A stretch of 40,662 nucleotides of DNA from the NCBI GenBank assembly GCA_040905715.1, contig JBBDRA010000004.1, positions 1 to 40,662 of the forward strand. The letters are read 5' to 3'. Shown piece by piece: positions 1,325-39,864 of the stretch (position 1 is the stretch's first letter; the number at the start of each line of letters is the position of its first letter). The DNA is from Minisyncoccota bacterium. Lineage in GTDB: Bacteria > Patescibacteriota > Minisyncoccia > Phycocordibacterales > CSBR16-193. The position numbers and the translations under genes are program-made. The notes beneath the pieces were generated by a model. It was not told where the DNA came from and ran no database searches. It saw only the letters and a program-made list of their open reading frames with translations.

Positions 1325-2314
1325 GTGATTAACTCAAAATCTATGGAACAAGAATTTCAACAGCAACCTCAAGAGGTAGAACCAAAGAATAACGGCCAAA
1401 TCATTGTCGCTGTTGGCGTTAGTGTTTTACTGACGGCTCTCGTGGTCGGTTTTGGTGTTTACTTTGTAATGAGTAAGTTTGCTGACCCGCAAAAACAAAC
1501 CGGGAGTGATCTTGTTACGGAAACTGAAGGAGTTAATGATATTAGCGAGTTGGTTTTACAAGATGTGGTAGATGAGATCGTTTACGTAGAGCAAGAATCT
1601 GGAGAGTTGGCTCAACTGGATACAAATAAGCTCAAAAAAGCTGGTCGTTACTATTACGTAGATATCGAAGCACAAAAAATTTACTATCTCAAAAAGAATA
1701 TCGATGGAGATAGTGTTCAATTAGGGAATGCTACGACTATAGATTCCAAGAGCTTTTCGATTTATAAAAATGATAATCGTTATGCACATGATTTAATAAA
1801 TGTGTATGCGGTATTGTCAATTCCGTGGTCGTCAGATTACGAATTTGGCGTTATCGAAAAAGCTGATCCACTGACTTTCGAACCAAAAATTGTCGAACAA
1901 TTTGATGTGTCGCAAGGTAATACGTTTCAAGGATGGATCTCTAGAGACAAAAATAATGTCTATTATAAATATGAAATTTTTGAACACGCTGACCCAAAGA
2001 GCTTTGAGATTTCAGAGAATGTCTCAATCAATAAAGACAAAAATAATGTTTATCTGTGGAGAGAAATTTTGCCTAAGGCAGACCCTCAAACTTACGAAAT
2101 ATTATTAGATGAGAGTGCTGCGGGCCGCGGTACAGTGTATGGAAAAGACAAAAATAATCTTTTTGTTGATTACTGCACGTTGAGCGGAGTTGATACGGCA
2201 TCAGTTAATTTTGAATATGTTCCAAATAAGGGGCGTGTATTTTCTGACAAAAATGGTGTTTTCACAATCAAACATGATGAAGAATCAAATACGTGTTCGA
2301 TAGTTCGAGAATAG
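1325..2314 (+). CDS. Membrane-anchored DKNYY-repeat protein
   Basis: GTG at 1325, with an alternative ATG at 1343. TM helix IIVAVGVSVLLTALVVGFGVYFVM. Repeats are DKNNVYYKYEIFEHADPKSFE, DKNNVYLWREILPKADPQTYE, DKNNLFVDY and DKNGVF. Confidence 0.65.
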   Translation: MINSKSMEQEFQQQPQEVEPKNNGQIIVAVGVSVLLTALVVGFGVYFVMSKFADPQKQTGSDLVTETEGVNDISELVLQDVVDEIVYVEQESGELAQLDTNKLKKAGRYYYVDIEAQKIYYLKKNIDGDSVQLGNATTIDSKSFSIYKNDNRYAHDLINVYAVLSIPWSSDYEFGVIEKADPLTFEPKIVEQFDVSQGNTFQGWISRDKNNVYYKYEIFEHADPKSFEISENVSINKDKNNVYLWREILPKADPQTYEILLDESAAGRGTVYGKDKNNLFVDYCTLSGVDTASVNFEYVPNKGRVFSDKNGVFTIKHDEESNTCSIVRE

Positions 2315-2461
2315 AAGCTCTTCGTAACGGATACTTAATATATAATACGCCTATCGATAGCGTACGTGTAGTTCTGATATGCAAGCACCGCAAGGCTAAA
2401 GCAGGTCTTGTTGCTCGCACATCCACTAGATACAAAAAAAGAGATAGGCTATACTACACAT

Positions 2462-2884
2462 ATGCATTTTATGTCTCTTGATCTCGGTGTTGTCGCGCTC
2501 GCGGCGTTGGTTCCAATGGTGCTGGGAAGTTTCTGGTATTCACCGGTAGTATTTGGTAATCACTGGCTGACACTCTCTCGAATAAAAACGAGTAGCATTC
2601 AGCAGGCACGTCTTGAGATAGCTGTTGCGCTCTTCGGAAGTTTTCTTGCTTCGTTCATCATGAGTTTCGTGCTGGCAATGCTGATAGAGAATTTGTTTGT
2701 GATAACAGCAGTTGATGGCATGGTCCTTGGCTTCTGGATCTGGCTTGGGTTTGTGGCTACTACAATGATCCCGGAGTATCTATTCGGTGGCAGTGCCAAA
2801 CCGTACTTGCTGTATGTGCTGAATGCCGGTTACCACCTTCTTGCTCTGATAAGCATGGGCGGACTACTGGCTCTCTGGATGTAG
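2462..2884 (+). CDS. DUF1761-family integral membrane protein
   Basis: The ORF opens at TTG 2408, but ATG 2462 sits 6 nt after a TATACT box. LGSFWYSPVVFGNHW matches the DUF1761 signature. About 4 TM helices. Confidence 0.6.
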   Translation: MHFMSLDLGVVALAALVPMVLGSFWYSPVVFGNHWLTLSRIKTSSIQQARLEIAVALFGSFLASFIMSFVLAMLIENLFVITAVDGMVLGFWIWLGFVATTMIPEYLFGGSAKPYLLYVLNAGYHLLALISMGGLLALWM

Positions 2885-2908
2885 TCACCGTGAGCCATAG
2901 ATAGAGAT

Positions 2909-3409
2909 ATGCAAAAAAACTTTTTTATCGGTCTTGTCGGCGCCCTGGTTTTGCTCGTCGGTTTTTATGTGTATCAGTTTGCGTATCAGCAGGAGTCTTC
3001 GCCTTTGCCGGACCCTGAAGATCCGGATGCCGGTGAGGTTATTCGCTCGGTAGAGCTCGCGGGGGAGTGTGTTGACGTAGATGTTGCTCAAGAGCCTAGT
3101 GAGCGGGCACAGGGTCTCTCCGGGCGCACTGAGTTGCTTGATGGGACCGGCATGTTGTTTGTATTTGAGCAACCCGACCGTCATAGTTTTTGGATGAAAG
3201 AGATGAATTTTTCTATTGATATGCTGTGGTTCTCCGAAGATAAACGTGTCGTGCATATTGTTAAAAACGCCTCACCTGAGAGCTTTCCTGAGTCTTTTCG
3301 ACCCGATGAGCCTGCGCTGTATGTCTTGGAAGTTCCGGCTGGATTTTCACAGGAACAGGGTGTAGAGGCGGGGGATTCTATGGGCTTTCAGGCTCAAGCC
3401 TGTGGATAA
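2909..3409 (+). CDS. DUF192-domain protein with N-terminal membrane anchor
   Basis: 166 aa. Anchor FFIGLVGALVLLVGFYVY. Core GLSGRTELLDGTGMLFVFEQPDRHSFWMKEMNFSIDMLWF follows the DUF192 (COG1430) pattern. Confidence 0.65.
   Translation: MQKNFFIGLVGALVLLVGFYVYQFAYQQESSPLPDPEDPDAGEVIRSVELAGECVDVDVAQEPSERAQGLSGRTELLDGTGMLFVFEQPDRHSFWMKEMNFSIDMLWFSEDKRVVHIVKNASPESFPESFRPDEPALYVLEVPAGFSQEQGVEAGDSMGFQAQACG
3401..3409 (-). promoter_or_regulatory. Perfect DnaA-box 9-mer (TTATCCACA on the minus strand) at the start of the nrdJ upstream region
   Basis: TGTGGATAA is read directly at 3401-3409 and overlaps the TAA stop of the DUF192 gene. Function is not demonstrated. Confidence 0.35.
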
Positions 3410-3651
3410 CTTTTGGTCTTTATAGGTTCAATTCAGGGTGCTTTTTAGATCAGGTTACAAGAGAGTCCTGTTTGGGTCAGATAGTACAGGCGTTTCCACG
3501 TTTCTCGATTGACAGCCACTCATTTTTTATTTCGTGTATGGGCTGTGGGCTGACCTGGGTTGCATACGGGGGTAAAATAGGAGAAACAGATGCTCATCAT
3601 TACAAATATTAGTAGTAGTATCAGTAATACTTTTCGATAATCCACTTTACT

Positions 3652-6033
3652 ATGGCAAACGAGAAACGATCTACACGATCAAAGAAAAAAACAACCAAAT
3701 CATCGGCTCAAGCAAAAGAGAGCACGACAGCGAAGACGTCTCGATCAAAGAAGGCTAAGAGCGGCATGACAAGCGAGCAAGCCGGCGCATTCATCAAAGG
3801 TGTTCGCAAGCGTGACGGTTCGGTTGTTGGTTTCGATCTCGACAAAGTTGCCAACGCGATCTACAAAGCAATGCTTGCCACCAACACCGGTTCGGATGTA
3901 GAGGCAAGTATGGTCGCGAATAAAGTGTTTGCTGAGCTGGTAAAGATCTCTAAGAAACACAAAGATTTTGTGCCGACCGTGGAAGGTATTCAGGATACGG
4001 TCGAAAAGGAATTGATGCTTTCTGATTATGTTGAGGCCTCTAAGTCGTACATTTTGTACCGTCAGGAGCACGCGAAGCGACGCGAGCAAGGGATCAAGGT
4101 TCCTAAGAAGGTTCAAAAGTTGGCGAGTGAGAGTAAGGCGTATTTCCGAAATCCTCTTGCTGAATTTATTTACTACCGTTCGTACTCCCGTTGGATGCCG
4201 GAAGAGAACCGACGCGAGACCTGGATCGAGACAGTTGATCGCTACATGGACTTCATGAAAGAAAATGTGGGTAGCGCAATAAAAGCAAACGAATACGCTG
4301 AGATCCGAGAGCATATTCTTCATCAGTGGTCGATGCCATCGATGCGACTGATGTGGTCTGCCGGCGCTCCGGCACGCAAGACCAATGTCTGTGCGTACAA
4401 CTGCTCGTTCATTGCTCCAAGTCAGCTACAAGACCTTGGTGAGATCATGTACCTCTCGATGTGCGGCACCGGTGTTGGTTTCTCAGTCGAGAGTCAGACG
4501 ATCCAGCAGTTGCCGATCATCCAAAAGCAGTCCGGCCAGCATGTCGGCACGCACACTGTAGACGACAGCAAAGAAGGGTGGGCAGATGCGTTCGTCTACG
4601 CGATGCAGACCTGGTTTGACGGGAAGGATCTTGATTTTGATTATTCCCAGGTTCGCCCGCAAGGCGCACGGCTCAAGACAATGGGCGGTAAGGCGAGTGG
4701 CCCGGATCCATTAATGCAATTGATGGCGTTTGCAAAGCAACGAGTGCTTGCACGACAAGGTAAGCGGCTTTCAAACCTTGATGCGCACGACATTATCTGC
4801 AAGATCGGTGAGATCGTTGTGGCCGGTGGTGTGCGTCGAAGCGCTCTGATCTCTCTTTCTGATCTTGATGATGATGACATGCGAGACGCTAAGAAAGGCC
4901 AGTTCTTCTTGACCGATCCACAGCGCGGCATGTCGAACAACTCCGCTGTCTACGAAGAGAAGCCAAGCAACGAAGATTTTCTCGATGAATGGGTGGCATT
5001 GATGAAGTCCGGTTCAGGAGAGCGAGGTATCTTTAACCGTGGCGGACTTCAGAGTCAGCTTCCGGAGCGTCGATGGAAGGTGTTCGAGGATCATGCGCCA
5101 ACGAGCGGAACGAATCCGTGTGGTGAGATCATCCTCAGGAGCAAGCAGTTCTGTAACTTAAGCGAAGTAGTGGCACGTAAAGAAGATGACGAAGCTTCGC
5201 TTATTAAGAAGGCTCGCATTGCTGCTATCCTCGGCACGTATCAGTCAACGCTGACCCATTTCCCGTATCTTTCAAAAGAATGGAAAGAGAATTGTGAGGA
5301 AGAGCGCCTTCTGGGTGTTTCGATCACCGGTCAGTGGGACTGTCCGGCAGTACGCAACCCGGAGACGTTGGAGAAGATCAAGAAGGAGGCGGTCAAGGTT
5401 AACAAACAGTTTGCAAAGCGTCTTGGTGTTAAGGAGTCAACGTGTGTGACGTGTGTGAAGCCATCGGGAACGGTCTCTCAGTTGGTAGACGCAAGTTCGG
5501 GTATGCATCCGCGACACTCTAAGTATTATATTCGACGGGTTCGCATCACCGGCACCGACAGTCTGTTTCAGATGTTGAAAGATCAGGGTGTGCCGTACAA
5601 GCCGGAGAACGGTCAGAGTGAAGAGAATGCACACACATTCGTGCTGGAGTTTCCGGTCAAGGCACCCGACGCTTCGATCATGAAAGATGACATGACCGCA
5701 AATGAGCAGCTTGAGTACTGGAAAATGGTGAAGGAGAATTACACCGAACATAATCCGTCGACCACGATATCGGTCGGACCAACTGAATGGGTTGAGACAG
5801 CAAACTGGATCTATGAGAACTGGGATCAGGTTGGCGGTCTTTCATTCCTTCCGCGCTTCGATCATGTGTATCCGTTGGCGCCGTACGAAGAGTGTGATGA
5901 GAAAACCTATAAAGAGCTTCTCAAGCGGTTTAACGGTATCGATTTCTCGAAGATCGTGACGTATGAAGCACAGGACAACACGAAAGGAGCAAAAGAGCTG
6001 GCGTGTGTGTCGGGAACGTGTGAGATCATCTAG
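3652..6033 (+). CDS. nrdJ: Class II (adenosylcobalamin-dependent) ribonucleotide reductase with N-terminal ATP-cone and a K/S-rich leader
   Basis: 793 aa. ATP-cone VRKRDGSVVGFDLDKV...ILYRQEHAKRRE, thiyl-radical loop GTNPCGEIILRSKQFCNLSEV, KPSGTVSQL, and C-terminal redox pair CVSGTCEII. Confidence 0.9.
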   Translation: MANEKRSTRSKKKTTKSSAQAKESTTAKTSRSKKAKSGMTSEQAGAFIKGVRKRDGSVVGFDLDKVANAIYKAMLATNTGSDVEASMVANKVFAELVKISKKHKDFVPTVEGIQDTVEKELMLSDYVEASKSYILYRQEHAKRREQGIKVPKKVQKLASESKAYFRNPLAEFIYYRSYSRWMPEENRRETWIETVDRYMDFMKENVGSAIKANEYAEIREHILHQWSMPSMRLMWSAGAPARKTNVCAYNCSFIAPSQLQDLGEIMYLSMCGTGVGFSVESQTIQQLPIIQKQSGQHVGTHTVDDSKEGWADAFVYAMQTWFDGKDLDFDYSQVRPQGARLKTMGGKASGPDPLMQLMAFAKQRVLARQGKRLSNLDAHDIICKIGEIVVAGGVRRSALISLSDLDDDDMRDAKKGQFFLTDPQRGMSNNSAVYEEKPSNEDFLDEWVALMKSGSGERGIFNRGGLQSQLPERRWKVFEDHAPTSGTNPCGEIILRSKQFCNLSEVVARKEDDEASLIKKARIAAILGTYQSTLTHFPYLSKEWKENCEEERLLGVSITGQWDCPAVRNPETLEKIKKEAVKVNKQFAKRLGVKESTCVTCVKPSGTVSQLVDASSGMHPRHSKYYIRRVRITGTDSLFQMLKDQGVPYKPENGQSEENAHTFVLEFPVKAPDASIMKDDMTANEQLEYWKMVKENYTEHNPSTTISVGPTEWVETANWIYENWDQVGGLSFLPRFDHVYPLAPYEECDEKTYKELLKRFNGIDFSKIVTYEAQDNTKGAKELACVSGTCEII

Positions 6034-8829: not shown

Positions 8830-11800
8830 ATGATCTTCGCTCACAAAATACGCTTTATTGTACGCAATTTTTTGGTACTGGCAGCGGTCCTTGCAGTCAG
8901 TGTTCTTGTTGTGGCAGTTATTACTCAAGCAGCAGCTCCGTCTGGTGGATATGCTCCAGGGGCAACGCTTGATCCGGATTGTTCACCGGGCGATGCGGAC
9001 TGTACAGTTGCTGTCGGACCGGATGGAGCAACGAGTACGTTGCAGTACAACGATGGTGGTGTTTTGGGTTCAATAGCAAATTTCTTCTATGATTCCGGGA
9101 CCGGAAACATCGGTATCGGTACCTCAACACCTTCTTCGCTGTTCACTGTTTCAGGTACGATCGTTGCTAATGGGATACACGCCACCTCTACCGGCTTTAC
9201 GTTTCCTGACGGCACCACACAGACCACTGCGGCAAGTGCCGGTGCTAGCTCTGCTTCCTCAACCGGCGCGATCCAGTACTCCGACGGGTCAGGTGGATTC
9301 CTGGCAGATGCAGACAATTTCTTTTGGGATTCTTCTACAAGTCGGTTAGGAGTGGGGACGAATACCCCGAGCAGTACATTTGAAGTTGTTGGTGATAGTG
9401 TGTTGCTTAATTTCCTCGAAGATTACTCGGATTACGGCATTAAAACAGGGGGAGGTATTCACTTCTCTCAATGGAGTGATGCAGATCCAAATGTCTATTT
9501 TAATGTCTTTGAAGATGCTGGGTATTCATTTTTTAATAATGATGCAACAAATGAGCTATTGCGCATTACCAGCGATGGTCTTGTTGGTATTGGTACCAGC
9601 ACTCCATCTACGGCCCTTTCGGTCAACGGCGAAACTCTCGCGTCGTACTTCACTGCAAGCTCAACAACTGCCACCTCAACCTTCGGCAATCTCAAGCTTC
9701 TCGGTACCGGCCTAACCTTCTCCGACGGCACTCAACAAACCACCGCAGCAAGTGCCGGCGCTTCAGCTGCCTCGTCCACCGGCGCGATCCAGTACTCCGA
9801 CGGGTCAGGCGGATTTGTGGCAGATGCGGGCAACTTCTTCTGGGACGCGACAAATGATCGACTCGGTGTTGGGACCAACTCGCCAACATCACCGTTCCAT
9901 GTTTTGGCGGATACAATCTATGGGCTTACCTTGCAGCGGGATCGGTCTAGCGTTTCCTCAAATCTTATCGGATTCAACTCGAGCAATGACAGTTCGTATC
10001 TTTCCGGGTATGTGGGGTCGAAGAGTGCGCCGGGGGACGGGGAGGTGTATGTATACTCCGGATCTCGAGATGATGAAGTTCACAAGGTTGATTCTTCTGG
10101 TAACAATGTATGGGAATACACTGGGCACAGTGATGATATAAATTTTGTTGCTGTTGATTCAGACGGTAATGTGTACTCCGCATCAAATGACGATGAAGTT
10201 CACAAGATAGACTCTGCCGGGAATAACATTTGGACGTATACGGGGCATACGGGGAATGTAAGTGCTGTTGCTGTTGATTCGGGCGGTAATGTCTACTCGG
10301 CTTCAAGTGATCAGGAAGTTCATAAGATCGATTCAAGCGGCAATCAGGTTTGGACATACACCGGACACAATAGCAGTGTGAATGCTGTTGCTGTTGATTC
10401 AGACGGAAACGCATATTCCGCCTCTGATGATGACGGAGTTCACAAAGTAGATTCGAGTGGTAATCAGGTTTGGACGTATACGGGGCATAGCGACAGGATT
10501 CTTGCTGTTACTGTTGATTCGGACGGTAACGTGTATTCAGGATCTTTTAATACAGATGAGGTTCACAAGGTAGACTCGAGCGGTAATCAGGTTTGGGTGT
10601 ATTCCGGTCACAGTGAAGGTATACGGGCTATTGCATCTGATGCGGACGGTAATGTGTACTCTGCGTCGAATGATAATAGTCTCCATAAGATCGACTCAAA
10701 TGGTGATCATGTTTGGACGTATGCAGGCTACGGTAGTGCTAATGCAGTATCTGTTGCTGTTGATTCTAACGGTAATGTCTACTCCGGAGGGAATGACGAT
10801 ATTCTTCACAAGATCGACTCAAACGGTGATCAGGTCTGGACGTATACAGATCATGCCGGTTTTGTTTTGGGTGCTGCTGTCGACCCTGGTACTGAGGGTG
10901 CCGGCTTCTGGAGCGAGGCCATCCCCGCAACCGGCCCCGCGGCACTTGTTTTTGGTACGAACGAAACACCGACAAACTCCGGATCGATAGCTGAGCGTAT
11001 GCGCATCACCGGCGAGGGCTTGGTTGGCATCGGCACTACTAACCCGGACGAACTTCTCCACGTAGCCGGCAACGGACTTTTTGATGATCAATTATCCGCA
11101 GACACTCTCTCAGTTTCAACCACCACTGGTACGAGTACGTTCGCAAATGCGCTTGGTGTTGGTTCTACTTCAACGTCACTCGCAAACATTTTCAACGTTG
11201 ATGGCTCTGCTTCGATCGGTTCCTCGTACGGAGTATTTAACGCACCAACCAACGGTCTCATTATTGAGGGTAGCGTCGGTATCGGCACTACTACTCCAAC
11301 CACCGCACTCTCCGTTAACGGCGAAACTCTCGCGTCGTACTTCACTGCAAGCTCAACAACTGCCACCTCAACCTTCGGCAATCTCAAACTTCTCGGTACC
11401 GGCCTAACCTTCTCTGACGGCACTCAGCAAACCACCGCAGCTAGTGCCGGCGCCAGCGCTGCTTCGTCCACTGGCGCGATTCAGTACTCTGATGGGTCTG
11501 GTGGATTTTTGGCGGATGCAGATAATTTCTTCTGGGATGCGACAAATGATCGGCTTGGTATTGGGACAAATTCACCAGCGTCACCGTTTCATATCTCAGT
11601 GGATACAGAGTACGGTTTTACCTTGCAGCGGGATCGGTCATCACAGGGTTCGAATCTACTTCGATTTACCTCGAGTGACAATAGCTCTCATTTATCTGGG
11701 TATATTGGGTCAAGAAGTACAGCGGAAGACCAGGCTGTCTATCATTACACTGGTGATACTTCTGGAAATGTTCGTAAACTTGATTCGAGTAGTAATGTCG

Positions 11801-14028
11801 AATGGACAAATTCAAACGGCACGGGGGAAGTTATTGATGTTGCGGTTGATTCGAACGGTAATGTATACGCAGCATACTACGATGAAGATAAAATTAAAAA
11901 AATCGATTCGACAGGAAATCTTCTTTGGCAATTTGATGTTACTGGACCGCGCTCGGTTGCAGTTGGTACAGATGGATACGTATATACTGCAGGTTATGAT
12001 GATTCTGTTAGAAAAATTGATTCTTCAGGAAATCAAGTTTGGGTGAACAGTGCTGATATTTCATCCAATAATGCTATGGGTGTTGCTGTAGATACAGACG
12101 GTAATGTGTATGTGGGTGATAGTGATGCTATTAAAAAGTTTGATTCTGACGGTACTCTTATACAGTCATTTGGACAGGTTACAATGAAACTAAAAGTTGA
12201 CACCTCCGGGAACATATACAGTGGAGGAAATTCATCTGAATATGTTCGCAAGTACGATTCTGATTTCAATCTGCTTTGGACGTACAGCGGATTCGAAGAT
12301 AGTAGCGGTCCAGGTCAGTTTGATGGTATTACTGATATAGCGGTTGATGATGATGGTAATGTATATGCTGTTTCGAGGAACGATGATTGGGTGGCGAAGA
12401 TAAATTCAAATGGTAGTGAGGTATGGACGTACGATCTTTCGTCTACAGGAAGCGGAGTAGATGTTGATACGTCAGGACTTGTTTACGTAAGAGAGAACGA
12501 CAAGGTTACTATACTTGACTCGAGCGGTAATTTGGTAAGCGTCTATTCCAATTCATCAATTAATAATGCTGGCGGTATGGCTGTCGATCCTGGTTCTCAA
12601 GGCGCTGGTTTTTGGGACACGGTTGATGCTACCGGTCCCGCAGCTTTGGTGTTCGGTACCAACGAAACACCAACCGCTGCCGGCGCGGTTACTGAACGTA
12701 TGCGCATCACCGGAGAGGGGTTGGTTGGTATCGGTACGACTGCTCCTGATGAACTCCTCCACGTTGACGGGAACACGAAGGTGGGTGGTGAGTTGAAGGT
12801 TGCCACTACCACCGGCACCTCCACGATCACCAATGCTTTGGCGGTTGGTACGAGCTCAACTGATACCGCAAACCTCTTCACGGTCAGTGGCTCGGCAGTG
12901 ATCGGGTCGTCGTACGCAACAACCTCCGCGCCGACCGATGGCCTCTTAGTGGAAGGGTGGGTCGGTATCGGCACAAGCACGCCGGCGCATCCGCTAGCAC
13001 TAGCCTCAGGCGCACATGTTACCGAAGGGGGAACGTGGACTGATGCATCCAGTCGCGAGTACAAGGAGAACTTTGAGAGCCTGAGTGCGTCTACAACACT
13101 TGCCAGCATCAGAGAGCTCGATATAAGTCGATGGAACTATAAAGTTGAGAGTGAAAGTGTTCAACACATCGGACCGGTAGCCGAAGAATTTCATAAACTG
13201 TTCGGTGTTGGAACAGATAGAACCATCGCGTCGCTTGATACCTCAGGTGTTGCCCTAAGAGGAGTGCAGATACTGGCAGATCAGCATGACTTGCTTTATA
13301 GCGTACTTGACCTCTCCATAGATGATATTACGGCGGACTCAGGAGAACTTGTGCCGGAGGGAAGCAGGTTTATCGAGCTTGTAAAAGAAGCGCTCACACA
13401 TCTAGGTATTCAGATCAAGGATGGTGTTGTTTCAATTGCTCAGATCGGTGTTGAGTTGTTGCAAACGGATCGAATTGAAACACAGGAATTCTGTACTGAC
13501 GGCATCTGTCTTAACCAAAGCGAATTGAAGGCACTGATCCGTGATTATGCTCAAGGTTCTGATTCAACAGGAGATGAGGAAGAAGAGGAAAGTAATGATG
13601 CTAATGAAGAAGATAGGGGTGACGACAAGGAGACTGATCCGGATGATCAGGAAGATACAGATGATTATCCTGATGATGGCAATGCGGATGATGCTGGTAA
13701 TGAAAATGAAGACGCAGACAATGATGAGACAGAAGAAGGAAGCGAAGAAGATAACAAAAAAGAAGAGGGGGAGAAGGATGACAGTGATGAAAATGAAACT
13801 GATGACGGAGAGGGTCAAGGAGATGGTCCTGATGGTGAAGAGGGCGATGAAAAAGAATCGGGTGATGGTAGTGATGAGGACGACGAGAAGGTTGACGATG
13901 AAGAGCAGGAAACCGGCGATGAAACAGATGAAAGCGACAACGAAGACACCGATGAATCGGAGGACGATACAAGTGATGGTCAGTCTGAGGAAACAGGATC
14001 TGACGAAGGAGGTAGTGAAGATGAATAG
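8830..14028 (+). CDS. Giant tail-fibre-like surface protein with two 7-bladed beta-propellers, an S74-type intramolecular chaperone domain and a polyacidic tail
   Basis: 1732 aa. Signal/anchor FLVLAAVLAVSVLVVAVITQAAA. Recurrent fibre motifs are IQYSDGSGGF(L/V)ADA.NFFWD...RLG(V/I)GTN.P and GIGT(S/T)(T/N)P. Two blocks of 7 x ~40-aa blades. SSREYKENF...IGPVAEEF...SLDTSGV resembles the Peptidase_S74 chaperone. The last 157 aa are D/E-rich. Confidence 0.8.
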   Translation: MIFAHKIRFIVRNFLVLAAVLAVSVLVVAVITQAAAPSGGYAPGATLDPDCSPGDADCTVAVGPDGATSTLQYNDGGVLGSIANFFYDSGTGNIGIGTSTPSSLFTVSGTIVANGIHATSTGFTFPDGTTQTTAASAGASSASSTGAIQYSDGSGGFLADADNFFWDSSTSRLGVGTNTPSSTFEVVGDSVLLNFLEDYSDYGIKTGGGIHFSQWSDADPNVYFNVFEDAGYSFFNNDATNELLRITSDGLVGIGTSTPSTALSVNGETLASYFTASSTTATSTFGNLKLLGTGLTFSDGTQQTTAASAGASAASSTGAIQYSDGSGGFVADAGNFFWDATNDRLGVGTNSPTSPFHVLADTIYGLTLQRDRSSVSSNLIGFNSSNDSSYLSGYVGSKSAPGDGEVYVYSGSRDDEVHKVDSSGNNVWEYTGHSDDINFVAVDSDGNVYSASNDDEVHKIDSAGNNIWTYTGHTGNVSAVAVDSGGNVYSASSDQEVHKIDSSGNQVWTYTGHNSSVNAVAVDSDGNAYSASDDDGVHKVDSSGNQVWTYTGHSDRILAVTVDSDGNVYSGSFNTDEVHKVDSSGNQVWVYSGHSEGIRAIASDADGNVYSASNDNSLHKIDSNGDHVWTYAGYGSANAVSVAVDSNGNVYSGGNDDILHKIDSNGDQVWTYTDHAGFVLGAAVDPGTEGAGFWSEAIPATGPAALVFGTNETPTNSGSIAERMRITGEGLVGIGTTNPDELLHVAGNGLFDDQLSADTLSVSTTTGTSTFANALGVGSTSTSLANIFNVDGSASIGSSYGVFNAPTNGLIIEGSVGIGTTTPTTALSVNGETLASYFTASSTTATSTFGNLKLLGTGLTFSDGTQQTTAASAGASAASSTGAIQYSDGSGGFLADADNFFWDATNDRLGIGTNSPASPFHISVDTEYGFTLQRDRSSQGSNLLRFTSSDNSSHLSGYIGSRSTAEDQAVYHYTGDTSGNVRKLDSSSNVEWTNSNGTGEVIDVAVDSNGNVYAAYYDEDKIKKIDSTGNLLWQFDVTGPRSVAVGTDGYVYTAGYDDSVRKIDSSGNQVWVNSADISSNNAMGVAVDTDGNVYVGDSDAIKKFDSDGTLIQSFGQVTMKLKVDTSGNIYSGGNSSEYVRKYDSDFNLLWTYSGFEDSSGPGQFDGITDIAVDDDGNVYAVSRNDDWVAKINSNGSEVWTYDLSSTGSGVDVDTSGLVYVRENDKVTILDSSGNLVSVYSNSSINNAGGMAVDPGSQGAGFWDTVDATGPAALVFGTNETPTAAGAVTERMRITGEGLVGIGTTAPDELLHVDGNTKVGGELKVATTTGTSTITNALAVGTSSTDTANLFTVSGSAVIGSSYATTSAPTDGLLVEGWVGIGTSTPAHPLALASGAHVTEGGTWTDASSREYKENFESLSASTTLASIRELDISRWNYKVESESVQHIGPVAEEFHKLFGVGTDRTIASLDTSGVALRGVQILADQHDLLYSVLDLSIDDITADSGELVPEGSRFIELVKEALTHLGIQIKDGVVSIAQIGVELLQTDRIETQEFCTDGICLNQSELKALIRDYAQGSDSTGDEEEEESNDANEEDRGDDKETDPDDQEDTDDYPDDGNADDAGNENEDADNDETEEGSEEDNKKEEGEKDDSDENETDDGEGQGDGPDGEEGDEKESGDGSDEDDEKVDDEEQETGDETDESDNEDTDESEDDTSDGQSEETGSDEGGSEDE
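9625..9761 (+). repeat. Intragenic near-identical segment, copy A (partner at 11317-11453)
   Basis: 137 nt with 4 mismatches versus copy B, including a 71-nt identical run (9625-9695 = 11317-11387). The offset of 1692 nt is in frame. Confidence 0.9.
10042..10890 (+). repeat. Seven tandem ~120-nt coding repeats (propeller 1, highly uniform blades)
   Basis: (E/G/S/I)(V/L)HK(V/I)DS.G(N/D).(V/I)W.Y.G(H/Y)...AV(A/T)VDS.GN(V/A)YS occurs 7 times. The DNA motif GCTGTTGCTGTTGATTC recurs at about 10146, 10266, 10386, 10503 and 10750. Confidence 0.85.
11317..11453 (+). repeat. Intragenic near-identical segment, copy B
   Basis: See copy A. Flanking homologous sequence drops to roughly three-quarters identity by eye. 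Confidence 0.9.
11734..12593 (+). repeat. Seven divergent ~40-aa blades (propeller 2)
   Basis: VRKLDSSSNVEW, IKKIDSTGNLLW, VRKIDSSGNQVW, IKKFDSDGTLIQ, VRKYDSDFNLLW, VAKINSNGSEVW, VTILDSSGNLVS. Confidence 0.75.
13030..13330 (+). other. Peptidase_S74-like intramolecular chaperone / autoproteolysis domain (within the CDS)
   Basis: GTWTDASSREYKENFESLSASTTLASIRELDISRWNYKVESESVQHIGPVAEEFHKLFGVGTDRTIASLDTSGVALRGVQIL fits the S-(D/S)-R-x-x-K-x-N ... GxIAQE ... D..g pattern of endosialidase and tail-fibre C-terminal chaperones. Confidence 0.6.
13555..14025 (+). repeat. 157-aa D/E-rich low-complexity tail (GAT/GAA-rich DNA)
   Basis: Read directly from the translation (GSDSTGDEEEEESNDANEEDRGDD...GGSEDE). 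Confidence 0.9.
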
Positions 14029-16863: not shown

Positions 16864-17733
16864 ATGCACCTTACTGAAGAAAAAATAACCGGTCTTGAAT
16901 TGCAGGCAAACGAGATCCGTAAAGACCTCATTGAGATGCTTCTGGCTTCCGGTTCCGGGCACTCCGCCGGGCCGCTTGGCATGGCTGATATTTTTACAGC
17001 GCTGTACTTCCAGGTTCTCAAACACGACCCGAGTGACCCGGAATGGTCTGACCGTGATAGATTGATCCTTTCAAACGGTCACATTGCGCCTATTCGATAT
17101 GTCACGATGCACCATGCCGGCTACGACATAACAAAAGAAGAGCTCGGCACACTCCGAAAGATCGGTTCAAAACTCGAAGGACACCCTTCATATAAAAGAA
17201 TGCATGCGCTTGAGACTTCGAGTGGTCCGCTTGGAGAAGGTGTTTCACAAGCAGCCGGAATGGCTCACGCAGCGCAGATGGATGGTCGGGAGTACGATTT
17301 TCATGTGTGGTGTCTCACTTCCGACGGCGAGCACGAAGAAGGAATGACTTGGGAGGCGATCATGTACGCTGCGAAATATCGTTTGAATAATCTTACGGTC
17401 ATTATAGATCGAAACAATATTCAGATAGACGGCGTGACCGAGGATATCATGCCGCTTGAGTCGCTTAAGGAAAAATACGAATCGTTCAACTGGACGGTGC
17501 TTGAGATGAACGGGCACGATATGCACGAGATCGTCTCAACACTTGAAGAGGCGAAGGCGATCCAGCAGTCACCGGTGTGTATTATTGCAAATACCGTTCC
17601 AGGAAAAGGAGTGGACTTTATGGAGCAGGACTATAAATGGCACGGCAATCCACCGGACAAAGAGCAGGCTAAGGAGGCCCTGAAGCAGTTGCGCTCACTT
17701 GGAGACAAGATCGAGGCGGCGGATAGTGATTAA
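16864..17733 (+). CDS. Transketolase, N-terminal (TPP-binding) subunit
   Basis: 289 aa. GSGHSAGPLGMADIFTALYF, LSNGH, TSDGEHEEG, IIDRNNIQIDG. Confidence 0.9.
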   Translation: MHLTEEKITGLELQANEIRKDLIEMLLASGSGHSAGPLGMADIFTALYFQVLKHDPSDPEWSDRDRLILSNGHIAPIRYVTMHHAGYDITKEELGTLRKIGSKLEGHPSYKRMHALETSSGPLGEGVSQAAGMAHAAQMDGREYDFHVWCLTSDGEHEEGMTWEAIMYAAKYRLNNLTVIIDRNNIQIDGVTEDIMPLESLKEKYESFNWTVLEMNGHDMHEIVSTLEEAKAIQQSPVCIIANTVPGKGVDFMEQDYKWHGNPPDKEQAKEALKQLRSLGDKIEAADSD

Positions 17734-17746
17734 GAAGTTTTATACC

Positions 17747-18727
17747 ATGGATTACAAACTTGTAGACAATTTATATAGTACTGACATAGAAACCGCCAAA
17801 ATGCGCGACGGGGCCGGGAAGGGCGTGGCTGAGCTTGGTGCAGAGAAAGACGATGTGGTCGTACTTGGCGCCGATACGATGGGCTCGAGTCGGGCAAAGT
17901 ACTTTGCCGAGAAGTTTCCGGAGCGCACGGTGCAGGTCGGCGTTGCTGAACAGAACTTGATCGGGGTGACCGCCGGCTTCGCGTACTACGGCAAGGTGCC
18001 GTACGCTTTTACCTATGCGCCGTTTTTGATCGGCCGGCCGTGGGAGCCGATCCGCACGACACTGTGTTATCCGAATAATCATGCTGTGCTCGTTGCTTCC
18101 CACGCTGGTCTCGCCACCGGTCCGGACGGTCCGACTCATCAGATGACCGAGGACATTGCCTTGACTCGGTGTTTGCCGAACATGACCGTGCTGTGCCCGG
18201 CGGACTACGAGCAGGCTCGCAAGGCGGTCAAGGCGGCGTATGATCTCGAAGGTCCGGTGTACGTACGAACTGCCCGTGAGGGAACTGAAGCGTTCACTAC
18301 TGAAGATACACCGTTTGAGGTTGGCAAAGCCCAGGTTTTGCGTGAGGGAACCGATCTCACTGTTATTGGGAACGGTTATTTGGTGTATCGCTTGCTTCAG
18401 GCGGCTGAACAGCTTACAAGCGAGCTTTCTATAGAGGTTATTAATCTCCACACGATCAAGCCATTCGACAATGACACGGTCATCCGCTCGGCCCGGAAGA
18501 CCGGCAAAGTATTCACAGCAGAGGATCACAATGTAGTTGGTGGTATGGGTTCAGCTGTCGCTGAAGTACTTGCTCATCACGCACCGGTTCCGATCCAGCG
18601 TCACGGAGTCCTTGATATATTCGCTGAGTCAGGTTCAAGCAAAGATCTCTGGAAAAAGTACCAGCTTGATACAGAAGGAGTTGTGCACTCGATCCGTAAT
18701 TTTATTGAGCACGTGTCGCGTCTGTAA
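17747..18727 (+). CDS. Transketolase, C-terminal (pyrimidine-binding) subunit
   Basis: The ORF opens at TTG 17699; ATG 17747 gives MDYKLVD. Motifs: VGVAEQNLIGVTAGFA, SHAGLATGPDGPTHQ, IEVINLHTIKPFD. Confidence 0.9.
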   Translation: MDYKLVDNLYSTDIETAKMRDGAGKGVAELGAEKDDVVVLGADTMGSSRAKYFAEKFPERTVQVGVAEQNLIGVTAGFAYYGKVPYAFTYAPFLIGRPWEPIRTTLCYPNNHAVLVASHAGLATGPDGPTHQMTEDIALTRCLPNMTVLCPADYEQARKAVKAAYDLEGPVYVRTAREGTEAFTTEDTPFEVGKAQVLREGTDLTVIGNGYLVYRLLQAAEQLTSELSIEVINLHTIKPFDNDTVIRSARKTGKVFTAEDHNVVGGMGSAVAEVLAHHAPVPIQRHGVLDIFAESGSSKDLWKKYQLDTEGVVHSIRNFIEHVSRL

Positions 18728-25560: not shown

Positions 25561-25633
25561 GCCACCTTAGCTCAGTTGGTAGAGCAACGGTTTTGTAAAC
25601 CGTAGGTCGTCAGTTCGAATCTGACAGGTGGCT
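25561..25633 (+). tRNA. tRNA-Thr (anticodon UGU), CCA not encoded
   Basis: Cloverleaf folded by hand: acceptor GCCACCT/AGGTGGC, D arm GCTC-AGTTGGTA-GAGC, anticodon arm ACGGT-TTTGTAA-ACCGT, variable AGGTC, T arm GTCAG-TTCGAAT-CTGAC. Confidence 0.9.
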
Positions 25634-25670
25634 CACGAGCTTAACAATTCAGTTAGTAAATAGTACAGAA

Positions 25671-25699
25671 ACCTATGCAACACCGGGTGTTGCATAGGT
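25671..25699. repeat. 29-nt perfect palindrome (REP-like), copy 1
   Basis: ACCTATGCAACACC-G-GGTGTTGCATAGGT. Confidence 0.95.
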
Positions 25700-25710
25700 T
25701 GGTGGATGCT

Positions 25711-26364
25711 TTATTCAAAGCCGGTTTTTGCAGGGCTCGTGTTTACAAAGTCGACGTAGTTAGTCGAATCTTTGAATTGATCAAGTAGTACAGCTTGATC
25801 CAACAAAGGTCCCCATCGGTTTAAAGATGTATAGTCAGGGAAACTCGACCATTCGTATCGATGCTCCTTTCCCGCCCATCCTTTTAGTTCTCTAGGGTTT
25901 CGGTGAATATATGCTGAGGCGTGAAGAAGTTGTGTGTTTGAGCTAATGTGTTGGGCTTGGAATTCTTTTTCAAATAGGTGGCCGGATCTATCATATTTCG
26001 TATTAAAGTATTTAGCATAACTGTTCAAAACTCGTTTCATATACTGGCTAATGCCACCGTCTTCCAGTTGTTGTAAAATCATGTGAAAATGGTTTGGCAT
26101 AATACAAAAGGCAACGAGACTCACAGCTCTGTTAGTGGCTATGTCATCTGCAATTGGTTGGGTAATGCCAAATGATCTTGTTTTGATGTATCGCAATGAT
26201 AGGAGAGAAGGATTAGAAATACGTTTAAGCGACTGGCTTGCCAGGATCGGCAGTAAGAATCTGGCTTTGTCTCCATTCAATTCAAATATGGGTTGTTTAT
26301 TGATGCCGCGTTGATATACGTGGTAGAACTCATGTGTCGCAAGAGGAACTTCTCGAATAGCCAT
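25711..26364 (-). CDS. REP-associated tyrosine transposase (RayT-like, Y1/HUH)
   Basis: 217 aa from ATG 26364. The track ORF extends to 26706, but that extension only translates the palindrome and antisense pheS. Motifs: FYHVYQRG, HUH motif IMPNHFHMIL, catalytic-Tyr region AYIHRNP, YEWSSFPDY. Confidence 0.8.
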   Translation of the reverse strand: MAIREVPLATHEFYHVYQRGINKQPIFELNGDKARFLLPILASQSLKRISNPSLLSLRYIKTRSFGITQPIADDIATNRAVSLVAFCIMPNHFHMILQQLEDGGISQYMKRVLNSYAKYFNTKYDRSGHLFEKEFQAQHISSNTQLLHASAYIHRNPRELKGWAGKEHRYEWSSFPDYTSLNRWGPLLDQAVLLDQFKDSTNYVDFVNTSPAKTGFE

Positions 26365-26391
26365 ATGTTTTTTAATTTTAACATCTTTGTC

Positions 26392-26420
26392 ACCTATGCA
26401 ACACCCGGTGTTGCATAGGT
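26392..26420. repeat. 29-nt perfect palindrome (REP-like), copy 2, inverted relative to copy 1
   Basis: ACCTATGCAACACC-C-GGTGTTGCATAGGT; the central base is the complement of copy 1. Confidence 0.95.
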
Positions 26421-26448
26421 ACAGGTACGCTCTATGCGATTCACCAAT

Positions 26449-26471
26449 GCGGTTCACCAAACCGCTTTTTT
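26449..26471 (+). terminator. Rho-independent terminator insulating pheS from the mobile unit
   Basis: GCGGTT-CACCA-AACCGC followed by TTTTTT. Confidence 0.6.
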
Positions 26472-26474
26472 CTG

Positions 26475-26480
26475 TATAAT
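26475..26480 (+). promoter_or_regulatory. -10 box TATAAT 10 nt upstream of the pheS ATG
   Basis: Read directly. No SD. Confidence 0.4.
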
Positions 26481-26490
26481 AAAGCCTATT

Positions 26491-27216
26491 ATGACCGAAG
26501 GACACTACCACCCCATTACGCGAATGAACCGACAGATCAACGATATTTTTTTTGATCTTGGGTTTGAAGTAGTCGACGGTCCCGAGGTAGAGGACGAGTG
26601 GCATAATTTTGACGCACTCAATATTCCACCACACCATCCGGCGCGAGATATGTGGGATACGTTTTGGTTGAAAGGAGAAAATCCGCGCAAGCTTCTTCGC
26701 ACGCACACGTCACCGATCCAGATTCGGCACATGGAGGAGCATGGTGCACCGGTGCGTATTATTGCCCCGGGTAAGACATTTCGAAATGAAGCAACCGATG
26801 CGACCCATGAGGCGCAGTTTTACCAGGTTGAGGGTCTGCTTATTGCCCAAGACATAACAATGGCGCATCTGAAAACAACACTTACGACTTTCTTTCAAAA
26901 ACTTTTTCATGCGGATATTCACGCACGACTGCGACCGAGTTATTTCCCGTTTGTTGAGCCCGGCGTGGAAATGGATATATCGTGTTTTCTCTGCGAGAGC
27001 AAGGGGTGCCGGGTTTGTAAGCAGACCGGCTGGATCGAGGTTTTGGGTGCAGGAATGGTGCATCCGAATGTGCTCACAAATGTGGGACTCGATTCGGCGA
27101 AATGGCAAGGCTTTGCGTTCGGTGGAGGAACCGATCGATTTGCAATGCTTAAGTACGGTATTGATGATGTGCGTAAGTTGTATACGGGAGATCTGAGGGT
27201 GGTAAATCAATTTTAG
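26491..27216 (+). CDS. pheS: Phenylalanyl-tRNA synthetase alpha subunit, catalytic core only
   Basis: 241 aa from ATG 26491. Motifs: HPITRMNRQINDIFFDLGFEVVDGPEVE, HPARDMWDTFW, FRNEATDATHEAQFYQVEG, GAGMVHPNV, FAFGGGTDR. No N-terminal coiled-coil domain is encoded. Confidence 0.85.
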   Translation: MTEGHYHPITRMNRQINDIFFDLGFEVVDGPEVEDEWHNFDALNIPPHHPARDMWDTFWLKGENPRKLLRTHTSPIQIRHMEEHGAPVRIIAPGKTFRNEATDATHEAQFYQVEGLLIAQDITMAHLKTTLTTFFQKLFHADIHARLRPSYFPFVEPGVEMDISCFLCESKGCRVCKQTGWIEVLGAGMVHPNVLTNVGLDSAKWQGFAFGGGTDRFAMLKYGIDDVRKLYTGDLRVVNQF

Positions 27217-38708: not shown

Positions 38709-38945
38709 ATGGTAGTACGAATGCGAACAACAAAATCGAAGACCGGCATGCGCCGATCTCACCACGCACTTGAAAAGCCGGCAACAACCGTTGACACTGA
38801 CGGTGTGATGCACTACAAGCACCGGGCTACAGCAGAGACCGGTAAGTATCGAGGTCGACAAGTGGTCGATGTTGAGAAAAAGCTTGAAAAAAAGCGGGTG
38901 AAGCAGCAGAAGAAACTTGAGGAGGCAGACTCCGCTTCGGAGTAA
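38709..38945 (+). CDS. rpmF: Ribosomal protein L32 (Cys-free form) with K/E-rich tail
   Basis: 78 aa. MVVRMRTTKSKTGMRRSHHAL and GKYRGRQVV fit the L32 pattern. Confidence 0.8.
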   Translation: MVVRMRTTKSKTGMRRSHHALEKPATTVDTDGVMHYKHRATAETGKYRGRQVVDVEKKLEKKRVKQQKKLEEADSASE

Positions 38946-38970
38946 TATTGTCCTTTCACATTGTTTTGGT

Positions 38971-39864
38971 ATGGCAAATCGGCATCTTTCACGATCAATC
39001 GTGTTGCAGTCTCTCTATGAATGGGATTTCGGCAACAAAAGCCCGGAGGAGGGTGTAGTAATTCTCGACCGTAACGTTGAGGAGTTCGCTCCAGGAATGG
39101 GCGATTATACGTTTATCAAAGCGCTTTTTTCAGGCGTGATAGAAAAACAAAAGGACCTTGATACCATCATTGAAAAGGCCGCGCCGGATTGGCCGATCGA
39201 CAAGATAGCGACCGTCGATCGCAATATTCTGCGCCTTGGCCTCTATGAACTCCTTTTTGGTGATCGTAGCGAGGTTCCCCCGAAAGTAGCTATTAATGAG
39301 GCGATCGAGCTTGCCAAAAGTTTTGGTGGTGATACGTCGAGTAAGTTCGTGAACGGTGTGCTTGGGGCGGTTTATAAAGAAATGGGTGAACCGGGAAAAG
39401 AAGAGACGTCCAAGCGTAAGAATATCGATCCAAATGCAAAGTTGCCGGAGAAAACTCTTTGTGGCGCTGTTGTGTATGCTCGAGATAACGACAAGCTGTA
39501 CTTAGCACTCGTTCACGATATCTTTGGTCACTGGACACTCAGTAAAGGCCGAATCCAGGAAGGAGAGGAGAAGGAAGACGGTGTAAAGCGTGAAGTGAAG
39601 GAAGAGATCGGTCTTGATGTTGATGTGCAGACCAAGCTCGGAGAAAACAGCTATGTTGCTTCTGATCCGGAGATAGGAAAACTGCGAAAGAACGTAACAT
39701 ACTTCCTCGCTGAGTCACCATACACTGAGGTTAAACTTGCCGAATCTGGCGGACTCGATGATGCCCGATGGTTTACGCTCGACGAAGTGGCCGACTTGAA
39801 CTTTTACGACGATATCGTGCCGCTTATCACCAAAGCAGTGAGCATACTCCAAGAAGATAAATAA
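38971..39864 (+). CDS. nusB: NusB antitermination factor fused to a C-terminal Nudix hydrolase domain
   Basis: 297 aa from ATG 38971. NusB part: RSIVLQSLYEWDF, DRNILRLGLYELLF, VAINEAIELAKSFGGDTSSKFVNGVLG. Nudix box: GRIQEGEEKEDGVKREVKEEIGL, which fits Gx5Ex7REUxEExGU exactly. Confidence 0.85.
   Translation: MANRHLSRSIVLQSLYEWDFGNKSPEEGVVILDRNVEEFAPGMGDYTFIKALFSGVIEKQKDLDTIIEKAAPDWPIDKIATVDRNILRLGLYELLFGDRSEVPPKVAINEAIELAKSFGGDTSSKFVNGVLGAVYKEMGEPGKEETSKRKNIDPNAKLPEKTLCGAVVYARDNDKLYLALVHDIFGHWTLSKGRIQEGEEKEDGVKREVKEEIGLDVDVQTKLGENSYVASDPEIGKLRKNVTYFLAESPYTEVKLAESGGLDDARWFTLDEVADLNFYDDIVPLITKAVSILQEDK

Follow-up and report, generated by a model that had tools for sequence, protein, structure and literature searches.

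How a genome of the Patescibacteria, or Candidate Phyla Radiation (CPR), comes to encode a protein built like a phage tail fibre is the question raised by contig JBBDRA010000004.1 of a tiny, uncultured Minisyncoccota bacterium (assembly GCA_040905715.1), whose 40,662 nucleotides, the entire contig, form the window analysed here. The protein is the 1732-residue product of one open reading frame (ORF), and it was first noticed in a reading made without database searches (hereafter the sequence-only reading), which took it for a cell-anchored trimeric fibre with propellers set into its shaft. We consider it, at a probability of roughly 0.7, to be a Sec-exported, homotrimeric, phage-tail-fibre-like surface fibre of Paceibacteria (CPR) and a counterpart of the mosaic adhesive trimer (MAT) fibres of Bdellovibrio.

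Architecture of the fibre protein

From the N- to the C-terminus the protein consists of a signal peptide, a Cys-loop head, a stalk carrying two propellers, a Peptidase_S74 (S74) domain, a Cys hairpin and a tail rich in Asp and Glu (Table 1). Most of this had been claimed beforehand, and the claims stood: the ORF runs as described from an ATG start; a supermodule of ~564 aa is duplicated (aa 267-829 against aa 831-1391, 57% identity over 579 columns, E=0 in self-comparison); the stalk motifs and the GFW connector are all present ([IL]QY[SN]DG...NFF[WY]D four times, G[IV]GTxxP (...L.V.G) nine times, and the GAGFW...ERMRIT connector twice); the shaft is fibre-like and interrupted by two seven-bladed propellers; an S74 domain follows; and the tail is acidic, the 162 residues behind the hairpin (aa 1571-1732) containing 28% Asp, 25% Glu and 12% Gly. 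The profile searches suggested at that time for S74, tail-fibre and propeller models likewise returned matches (PF13884, PHROG 'tail fiber', and PQQ_2/WD40). An assembly artefact was considered as the source of the internal duplication and rejected, because the copies are just 57% identical as protein and the 1732-aa ORF was assembled independently elsewhere.

Table 1. Features of the fibre protein and its upstream neighbour, in window coordinates
Feature	Residues and details	Position	Strand	Basis
Fibre protein, whole ORF	1732 aa + stop, ATG start	8830..14028	+	
Predicted Sec-type signal peptide	aa 1-~35; n-region K6/R8/R12, h-region aa 13-31, c-region TQAAA	8830..8934	+	by inspection
Cys-loop head	aa ~36-62; APSGGYAPGATLDPDCSPGDADCTVAV	8935..9015	+	alignment A4, 30 loci
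N-terminal stalk repeats	aa ~63-404; IQYSDG...NFFWD...RLGVGTNxP; ...LRITSDGLVGIGTSTP	9016..10041	+	motifs, MAT homology
Propeller 1	aa ~405-690; 7 blades of ~40 aa	10042..10899	+	Pfam, AlphaFold2, Foldseek
Connector, more stalk repeats, start of supermodule 2	aa ~691-960; GAGFW...GPAALVFGTNETP...ERMRITGEGLVGIGT	10900..11709	+	
Propeller 2	aa ~961-1258; 7 blades	11710..12603	+	Pfam, self-comparison, blade layout
Second connector and distal stalk	aa ~1259-1406	12604..13047	+	motifs, Foldseek
Peptidase_S74 intramolecular chaperone domain	aa 1407-~1500	13048..13329	+	Pfam, profile, AlphaFold2, Foldseek
Post-S74 helices and conserved Cys hairpin	hairpin aa 1555-1570; CTDGICLNQSELKALI	13330..13560	+	helices from AlphaFold2 model reaching aa 1545
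Acidic low-complexity tail	aa ~1578-1732; 155 aa	13561..14025	+	composition
Upstream neighbour, Ig-like surface/envelope protein, possible partner	861 aa	6116..8701	+	Pfam

The stalk ties the protein to fibres of solved structure. Sequence matches to the connector and adjoining stalk (aa ~691-960) included the Bdellovibrio fibres Bd2133, Bd1334 and Bd3182 as well as the tail fibres of cyanophages S-CBP1 and S-TIM5. The stalk segment ERMRITGEGLVGIGT of the window protein corresponds to SERMRITGSGLVGIGT in Bd1334, with counterparts in Bd2133 and Bd3182, and a further aligned stretch reads ERMRITGEGLVGIGTTNPDELLHVA in the window protein, SERMRITGSGLVGIGTPAPAVPLQVA in Bd1334 and SERMRIDTSGNLGLGTAAPTSALHVE in Bd2133. 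All three Bdellovibrio proteins were crystallised as trimers (PMC10769870), and their stalk motifs have been described as the capping loops of a trimeric beta-helix, with the consensus V-G-G/N-pi-x-x-P-x-x-x-L (PMC10769870). Foldseek gave local matches of the distal stalk to the same MAT fibres at probability 1.00, with 44-47% identity over ~50 columns. The comparisons thus support homology of the stalk repeats to the beta-helices of trimeric fibres, and the window protein would by this likeness be a trimer with six propellers.

The S74 domain was recognised by several routes. Residues 1407-1458 matched PF13884 at 31.0 bits, against a gathering cut-off of 22, and the putative nucleophile S1407 (codon 13048-13050) and general base K1412 (codon 13063-13065) fit the SDxxxK motif described for this family (PMC10769870). 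Both were invariant in alignments A1 (8 sequences) and A2 (65 sequences); in the larger one, the sole invariant columns were S152, K157 and G193 of the query, that is S1407, K1412 and G1448. A single-sequence phmmer search with the S74 region found nothing relevant among PDB sequences, whereas a profile built from eight fibre relatives reached the intramolecular chaperone (ICA) domain of MyRF (7dc3, E=3e-5) and an L-shaped tail-fibre protein of a phage (8hqz_d, E=5e-4), the dyad aligning with the Ser and Lys positions of 8hqz_d and with the equivalent position and the Lys of 7dc3. The AlphaFold2 model of aa 1256-1545 had a predicted local distance difference test score (pLDDT) of at least 90 over aa ~1376-1495, and Foldseek placed 7dc3 first (E=1.3e-4, probability 1.00, TMt 0.51), followed by four Bdellovibrio fibre crystal structures and then by the phage chaperones 3gud and 3gw6. 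Taken together, the sequence and Foldseek searches matched Bd1334, Bd2133, Bd2439 and Bd3182. Judged by every defining feature open to computation, this is a genuine S74 domain, predicted to trimerise and to cleave itself.

Each propeller sits inside the shaft. Seven blades of the HK[IV]DS type occupy aa 418-660 of propeller 1, and propeller 2 is also laid out as seven units; mean blade-to-blade identity was 62% in the first and 37% in the second. In the AlphaFold2 model of aa 300-760, propeller 1 formed 28 strands (7 x 4) with pLDDT above 90 over aa ~408-684, and its closest structural match was the designer protein WRAP-T (7bid, TMt 0.95, rmsd 1.2 A), a seven-bladed WD40-type scaffold. The N-terminal stalk comprises one uninterrupted module of ~120 aa (aa 141-270) and the N-terminal half of the module that propeller 1 splits. 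When the uninterrupted module was compared with the joined flanks of either propeller, the two aligned end to end (z=22 against shuffled controls), which places each propeller within a single ~120-aa stalk repeat. Propeller 1 opens with a strand of the fourth-strand type (aa ~408-411), and the fourth strand is missing from its last repeat, a pattern that would close the ring in the velcro manner with the chain entering and leaving through the same blade. Such a geometry suits a domain looped out of a fibre.

A mechanism can be proposed from these parts. The precursor would be exported unfolded, and its signal peptide would be removed near A34-A36. Three C-terminal S74 domains would then associate and template the folding of an interdigitated beta-helical stalk from the C- towards the N-terminus, after which S1407 and K1412 would cut the chain and free a 326-aa portion made up of the chaperone, the Cys hairpin and the acidic tail. 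What is left would be a mature fibre of ~1370 aa per chain, with the distal stalk (aa ~1259-1406) as its C-terminal tip. From each chain two seven-bladed WD40/PQQ-like propellers would loop out as lateral ligand-binding modules; with two per chain and entry and exit strands in the same blade, the propellers of a trimer would stand in two tiers of three. At the N-terminus the Cys-loop head would tether the fibre to the cell envelope, and the fibre would probably serve to bind surface structures on a host or partner cell.

Several observations weigh against this reading. The individual sequence matches of the stalk to MAT crystal structures were weak (E 0.0025-0.024 for Bd2133, Bd1334 and Bd3182), and the stalk was modelled at low confidence by AlphaFold2, albeit as a monomer, a kind of model that cannot address the stalk or the geometry of propeller insertion. 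The S74 domain had a modest Pfam score and a moderate Foldseek TM-score, at the values given above, and the propellers resemble generic scaffolds. Retention of the fibre on the cell after signal-peptide cleavage is something that we infer, and episymbiosis is not established for this clade of Paceibacteria (PMC11665869). Finally, the 2423-aa stalk/S74 relative P0005 (locus L166) has primase-like, RPA, Fic, ParE and PIN genes around it and a second S74 protein 4 kb downstream, a context which suggests that mobile elements or phages carry some members of the wider fibre family.

Head module, cargo and alternative readings

The sequence-only reading had described the N-terminus as a signal or anchor, and the two halves of that description fared differently. 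The signal is there, with K6/R8/R12 followed by a hydrophobic region of 19 residues, as read from the sequence. An anchor found less support, given the AxA-like sites that precede the head, and we consider the N-terminus more likely to be a cleavable signal peptide joined to a conserved Cys-loop head than a membrane anchor. With the signal peptide gone, it would fall to the head to keep the protein on the cell.

A scan of GTDB genomes with a degenerate pattern retrieved the head at 30 loci (L169-L198), up to four per genome, and every locus with a named taxon belonged to the Patescibacteria. The motif, YAPGATLDPxCxPxDxxC[TG]V, begins 1-8 residues after an AxA-type signal-peptidase site in the head-bearing ORFs, and its invariant columns in alignment A4 are P, G, T, P, C, P, D, C and V. 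We found no description of this motif. The proteins that carry it range from 300 to 2257 aa and differ greatly in their downstream domains, a diversity that makes the head look like an N-terminal module, specific to this lineage, for docking or sorting. At least nine of these proteins terminate in S74 (seven by Pfam and two more by an S74 profile made here), and their cargo includes a GDSL esterase, a GH32-like domain and glycine-rich domains.

The Cys hairpin, which had gone unmentioned before, lies between S74 and the acidic tail at window positions 13492-13539 (aa 1555-1570) and follows the pattern C-x2-9-C-[ILV]-[TN]-xx-[QE]-L-xx-[LI]-[LI]. The window protein shares it, together with a low-complexity tail, with seven head-bearing ORFs, and it was absent from 67 short S74 proteins of other bacteria. 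Relatives have tails rich in Ser, Thr and Pro at this position. The hairpin would leave together with the chaperone on release.

Homologues of the window protein, collected as 56 word-indexed hits and as 148 representatives from a library of 1.84 billion proteins, fell into propeller-only proteins on one side and stalk/S74 proteins on the other; the combination was rare and recurred with other propeller families. Scanned with the whole protein, the GTDB genomes yielded one distant match. Among the proteins that do combine the two, P0010 has an LVIVD propeller, a nearly identical head (65% over the head and first stalk unit) and an S74 region below the Pfam threshold; L190 has an LVIVD propeller with both the Cys head and S74; P0171 has FG-GAP repeats between stalk motifs and matches the S74 region of the query with no Pfam S74 hit; and P0190 has NHL repeats and an S74 region matched by that of the window protein. 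The shafts of other relatives carry a phage tail-collar domain, YadA-head-like repeats or a matrixin. On a related Paceibacteria contig (L001, 2-5915), two fibre genes in tandem encode a common C-terminal chassis (stalk, S74-like domain and tail; 90% identity over 502 aa, with long fully identical runs) and differ in their N-terminal cargo, which points to a cassette swap or recent gene conversion. The window protein displays every element of the layout provisionally assigned to this head-S74 fibre family (signal peptide, head, stalk with cargo, S74, Cys hairpin and tail), and it is, by these alignments, a member of a so far undescribed CPR family with a conserved head, S74 and Cys hairpin and swappable cargo.

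Cleavage of the signal peptide also admits a different outcome, namely a trimeric lectin or bacteriocin-like fibre that is released instead of retained and acts on other cells or on environmental polymers. The signal-peptide-like N-terminus, with its AxA-type sites across the family, hardly resembles a stable anchor; the 1732-aa sequence contains no LPXTG motif, lipobox or C-terminal transmembrane segment; and the head module has a length of just ~25 aa. We nevertheless consider release unlikely. That many different fibres bear a conserved, lineage-specific head is best understood if the head is a shared attachment device, and the N-terminal domain conserved in the MAT fibres has been interpreted by the same argument (PMC10769870). 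Moreover, the 19-residue hydrophobic region is long enough for a signal anchor, and the membrane-embedded immunoglobulin (Ig)-like protein encoded next door could serve as a docking partner for a retained fibre.

The cargo raises the further matter of whether the propellers degrade a host surface polymer, as the catalytic propellers of endosialidases do. Endosialidases unite a catalytic propeller, a stalk and S74 in one chain (PMC12632334), and enzymatic cargo does occur in this family, as the GDSL esterase, GH32-like domain and matrixin of the relatives attest. The propellers of the window protein, however, matched only non-catalytic repeat families in Pfam (PQQ_2 at 8e-30, together with WD40 and SBBP), with no glycoside hydrolase, lyase, sialidase or BNR hit, and no catalytic family appeared among the listed structure matches. 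Their nearest structures are designer or prokaryotic WD40-type seven-bladed scaffolds (besides 7bid, the 'highly repetitive propeller' 2ymu and the prokaryotic WD40 domain 5yzv), and the mutual identity of the propeller 1 blades suggests a recently amplified binding scaffold. A fibre-borne depolymerase therefore seems to us quite improbable.

A more sceptical reading would make this a repeat-rich surface protein that works as a monomer, its S74-like segment having decayed to a relic unable to trimerise or to cleave. The modest S74 score and the poor monomer models of the stalk could be taken in this sense, as could the S74 region of P0010 under the Pfam threshold. A relic would scarcely be expected to keep its catalytic Ser and Lys strictly conserved, or to yield a confident core model (pLDDT >=90) that matches ICA structures, and the stalk motifs match beta-helices that are obligate trimers; we regard decay as very improbable, and return to the trimeric surface fibre as the working interpretation.

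Relation to characterised fibres

The closest characterised system is the S74 subgroup of MAT fibres of Bdellovibrio bacteriovorus, for example Bd3182 (Caulton et al. 2024, PMC10769870), which are chromosomal fibres published for prey recognition; S74 is present in 13 of the 21 members (PMC10769870). The two systems have in common a chromosomal gene outside any phage module, an N-terminal export signal (here by inspection), a long beta-helical stalk with capping-loop repeats of the form ...ERMRI..G.VGIGT..P...L.V.G, and the S-x4-K dyad of S74. Both families also occur in multiple copies, in which an N-terminal module is conserved and the functional domains are mosaic and swappable. The MAT producer lives on other bacteria, a likeness that would extend to the bearer of the CPR fibre if that too is an episymbiont.

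The differences are equally clear. All 21 Bdellovibrio MATs start with a beta-rich domain, conserved and ~130 aa long (PMC10769870), whereas the window protein has the Patescibacteria-specific Cys-loop head of ~25 aa, and for this reason it is best treated as belonging to an analogous family and not to the Bdellovibrio family proper. Its functional domains are two propellers per chain in mid-shaft instead of a C-terminal tip, it continues after S74 into a Cys hairpin and a long acidic tail, and it comes from a different phylum, one which is presumed to lack an outer membrane. The published table of MAT-like proteins from other predators contains no CPR/Patescibacteria member and no propeller cargo (PMC10769870).

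Endosialidase tailspikes (K1F / endoNF; GH58 plus chaperone) offer the nearest precedent for the combination of domains, with one beta-propeller per chain, a trimeric beta-helix stalk and a cleaved C-terminal S74 (PMC12632334). Their propeller is a sialidase with an active site, whereas the two of the window protein are seven-bladed, WD40-like and placed within stalk repeats, and Pfam, AlphaFold2 and Foldseek gave no sign in them of the catalytic sialidase-type propeller that defines GH58. The endosialidase propeller is six-bladed and lies N-terminal to the stalk. Endosialidases are moreover encoded by phage genomes and begin with a virion-attaching N-terminus, in contrast to the signal peptide and chromosomal location found here.

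Other likenesses concern single parts. The T5-type L-shaped tail fibre (pb1) aligned through its S74 domain (8hqz_d), and the fibres of cyanophages S-CBP1 and S-TIM5 through the connector and stalk; these are virion components without a signal peptide, and no propeller was seen in those matches. The best-scoring stretches of the significant PHROG hits lay in the propeller, connector and stalk, with a weak hit at aa 153-189 of the N-terminal stalk. MyRF, whose ICA domain (7dc3) gave the best profile and fold match to the S74 region, has a beta-helical stalk with the same capping-loop motif ahead of that domain (PMC10769870). It is a eukaryotic membrane-tethered transcription factor in which cleavage frees the N-terminal part from a C-terminal membrane anchor. 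The propellers share the seven-bladed fold and near-identical blades with the repetitive WD40-type propellers 2ymu and 7bid. Sequence similarity to phage propeller proteins, among them PHROG 8401 (Salicola phage SCTP-2) and gp61 of Nitratiruptor phage NrS-2, reached 46%, and the best phage match of propeller 2 was gp61, a tail fibre protein. The repetitive WD40-type and phage propeller proteins are free-standing or in tandem, and were not found with stalk repeats or S74.

The sequence-only reading knew of no described fibre with propellers inserted in its shaft. The mid-shaft placement does appear to be new, while the novelty of the combination is tempered by MAT fibres and endosialidases and by P0010, P0171, P0190 and L190. 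In a full-text search we found no publication that ties Peptidase_S74 or an endosialidase chaperone to Patescibacteria/CPR, and the literature on 'mosaic adhesive trimers' covered Bdellovibrio-like predators only. The chassis and the concept are thus already known, from MAT fibres and from the propeller, stalk and S74 of endosialidases; what is new is the lineage (Patescibacteria), the non-catalytic propellers in mid-shaft, and a multi-copy family with lineage-specific head and hairpin modules. NCBI already lists this protein, under generic names ('PQQ-binding-like beta-propeller repeat protein [Candidatus Paceibacterota bacterium]', and for a truncated copy 'tail fiber domain-containing protein, partial'), so the value lies in the interpretation and not in a new sequence.

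How CPR/Patescibacteria recognise and grip their partners is largely obscure beyond a few cultured Saccharibacteria, for which type IV pili and unnamed adhesins are indispensable (PMC10633639, PMC11665869, PMC12206443). The fibre and its family are concrete candidates for host-specificity determinants in the less-studied Paceibacteria, recognisable from sequence alone and resting on a well-understood chassis, the S74-matured trimeric beta-helix, with cargo domains that could be expressed and screened for ligands. They extend the MAT concept, of bacteria living on bacteria that borrow phage receptor-binding architecture, to an unrelated phylum, and show that globular domains can ride inside a shaft and not just at its tip. 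A bolder proposal, which we hold only tentatively and at less than even odds, is that the Patescibacteria, or at least the class Paceibacteria, possess a lineage-wide, multi-copy arsenal of trimeric fibres resembling receptor-binding proteins, in which a shared head and a shared S74-hairpin-tail module frame cassettes that are swapped (WD40-like, LVIVD and FG-GAP propellers, GDSL esterase, GH32-like). If so, such fibres would set which hosts an episymbiont attaches to and would diversify by cassette exchange and intragenic recombination, as is suggested by the tandem paralogues that share a chassis and by a 1.8-kb tract of 4.2% divergence in an otherwise near-identical background.

Chromosomal setting and variation within the gene

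The gene lies in housekeeping surroundings. Twenty large ORFs of the 40.6-kb contig were scanned against Pfam, and the matches were cellular: class II ribonucleotide reductase, GAPDH, RpiB, Rpe, a split transketolase, PfkB, release factor, ribosomal protein S2, EF-Ts and PheT, with GyrB, ThrS, DnaE, a NusB-NUDIX fusion and RNase III also on the contig. No phage structural, packaging or lysis gene was found among these 20 ORFs, and the G+C content was even over the fibre gene and its neighbours. A scan for promoters and terminators gave background levels. GyrB was 92% identical to that of a Candidatus Paceibacterota metagenome-assembled genome (MAG) and 72-74% identical to those of other Paceibacteria and Zambryskibacteria MAGs, which marks the organism as one of the Paceibacterota, and a related contig was collinear with the window. 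The 90%-identity cluster of the fibre includes a 99.25%-identical copy of 1732 aa from an independent MAG as well as contig-truncated copies. Through exact-sequence look-ups of cluster members, the comparison with related MAGs proposed earlier became possible: the order nrdJ - Ig-like protein - fibre - gap recurs in GCA_040876875.1, and the gap-side flank recurs in GCA_040879545.1, whose contig ends inside the fibre gene.

The sequence-only reading had placed nrdJ directly upstream, which proved incorrect, since the gene for the 861-aa Ig-like protein intervenes and nrdJ precedes that. Its statement that no phage genes flank the fibre and that this is not a prophage remnant agrees with the Pfam matches and with synteny kept in three MAGs; we conclude that this is a stable chromosomal gene, and a prophage origin was rejected on the same grounds. 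The broader view of a phage or tailocin tail-fibre gene, lodged in the chromosome as a remnant or as mobile-element cargo, is hardly credible: matches to PHROG 'tail fiber' families and phage propeller proteins, the general association of S74 with phage fibres, the setting of P0005 among primase-like, Fic, ParE and PIN genes, and an IS200-like transposase 11.7 kb downstream are outweighed by the lack of phage genes among the scanned ORFs, the gene order kept in a second MAG and the gap-side flank in a third, a gene G+C equal to that of the surroundings, and a Sec signal peptide with a cellular, lineage-specific Cys head at the N-terminus, where no virion-attachment (adaptor) domain was found.

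The upstream protein combines a signal peptide, three GWINF-type repeats, three PF16403 Ig-like domains and acidic Asp/Pro-rich linkers with a C-terminus of multiple transmembrane segments interleaved with CarboxypepD_reg domains. A fibre gene stands next to the Ig-like gene also at locus L168, and in three fibre relatives (P0011, P0027 and P0040) PF16403 and S74 occur within one polypeptide, a hint that the fibre and the Ig-like protein are functionally linked.

Comparison of the window with the 99.25% allele (L168) revealed a patch of variation. The two had no nucleotide differences over 8.8 kb upstream and 14 in the following 10 kb, against 76 differences (4.2%) in the tract of 1.8 kb at window positions 10773-12585 (gene nt 1944-3756, aa 648-1252). 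At 61 of 74 variant sites, often in runs, one allele carried the base found at the paralogous position of the other internal repeat; the first 400 nt of the repeats are 82% identical as DNA. A partial contig breaks off exactly at aa 648, where the tract starts, and the window allele is present in a third MAG. The tract may have arisen by recombination with a diverged allele, by patchy gene conversion or as an assembler mosaic of co-existing strains. A diversity-generating retroelement was rejected as its source, as 56 of 69 changed codons are synonymous and the scanned ORFs include no reverse transcriptase.

Three features of the contig lie apart from the fibre. The IS200-like Y1 transposase ORF mentioned above (331 aa, positions 25561-26706, minus strand) has its Y1_Tnp domain in the C-terminal half only and adjoins the sole tRNA gene of the window, tRNA-Thr(TGT). 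At positions 38917-39864 on the plus strand, NusB is fused to a NUDIX hydrolase domain and followed by RNase III, an arrangement also found on the related contig L001 (6983-7882). Within a pentose-phosphate cluster with rpiB and rpe, transketolase is divided at positions 16864-18727 between an N-terminal ORF and a second ORF with the pyrimidine-binding and C-terminal parts; as listed the two overlap by 35 nt, and at loci L167 and L168 the second was called from a later start without overlap.

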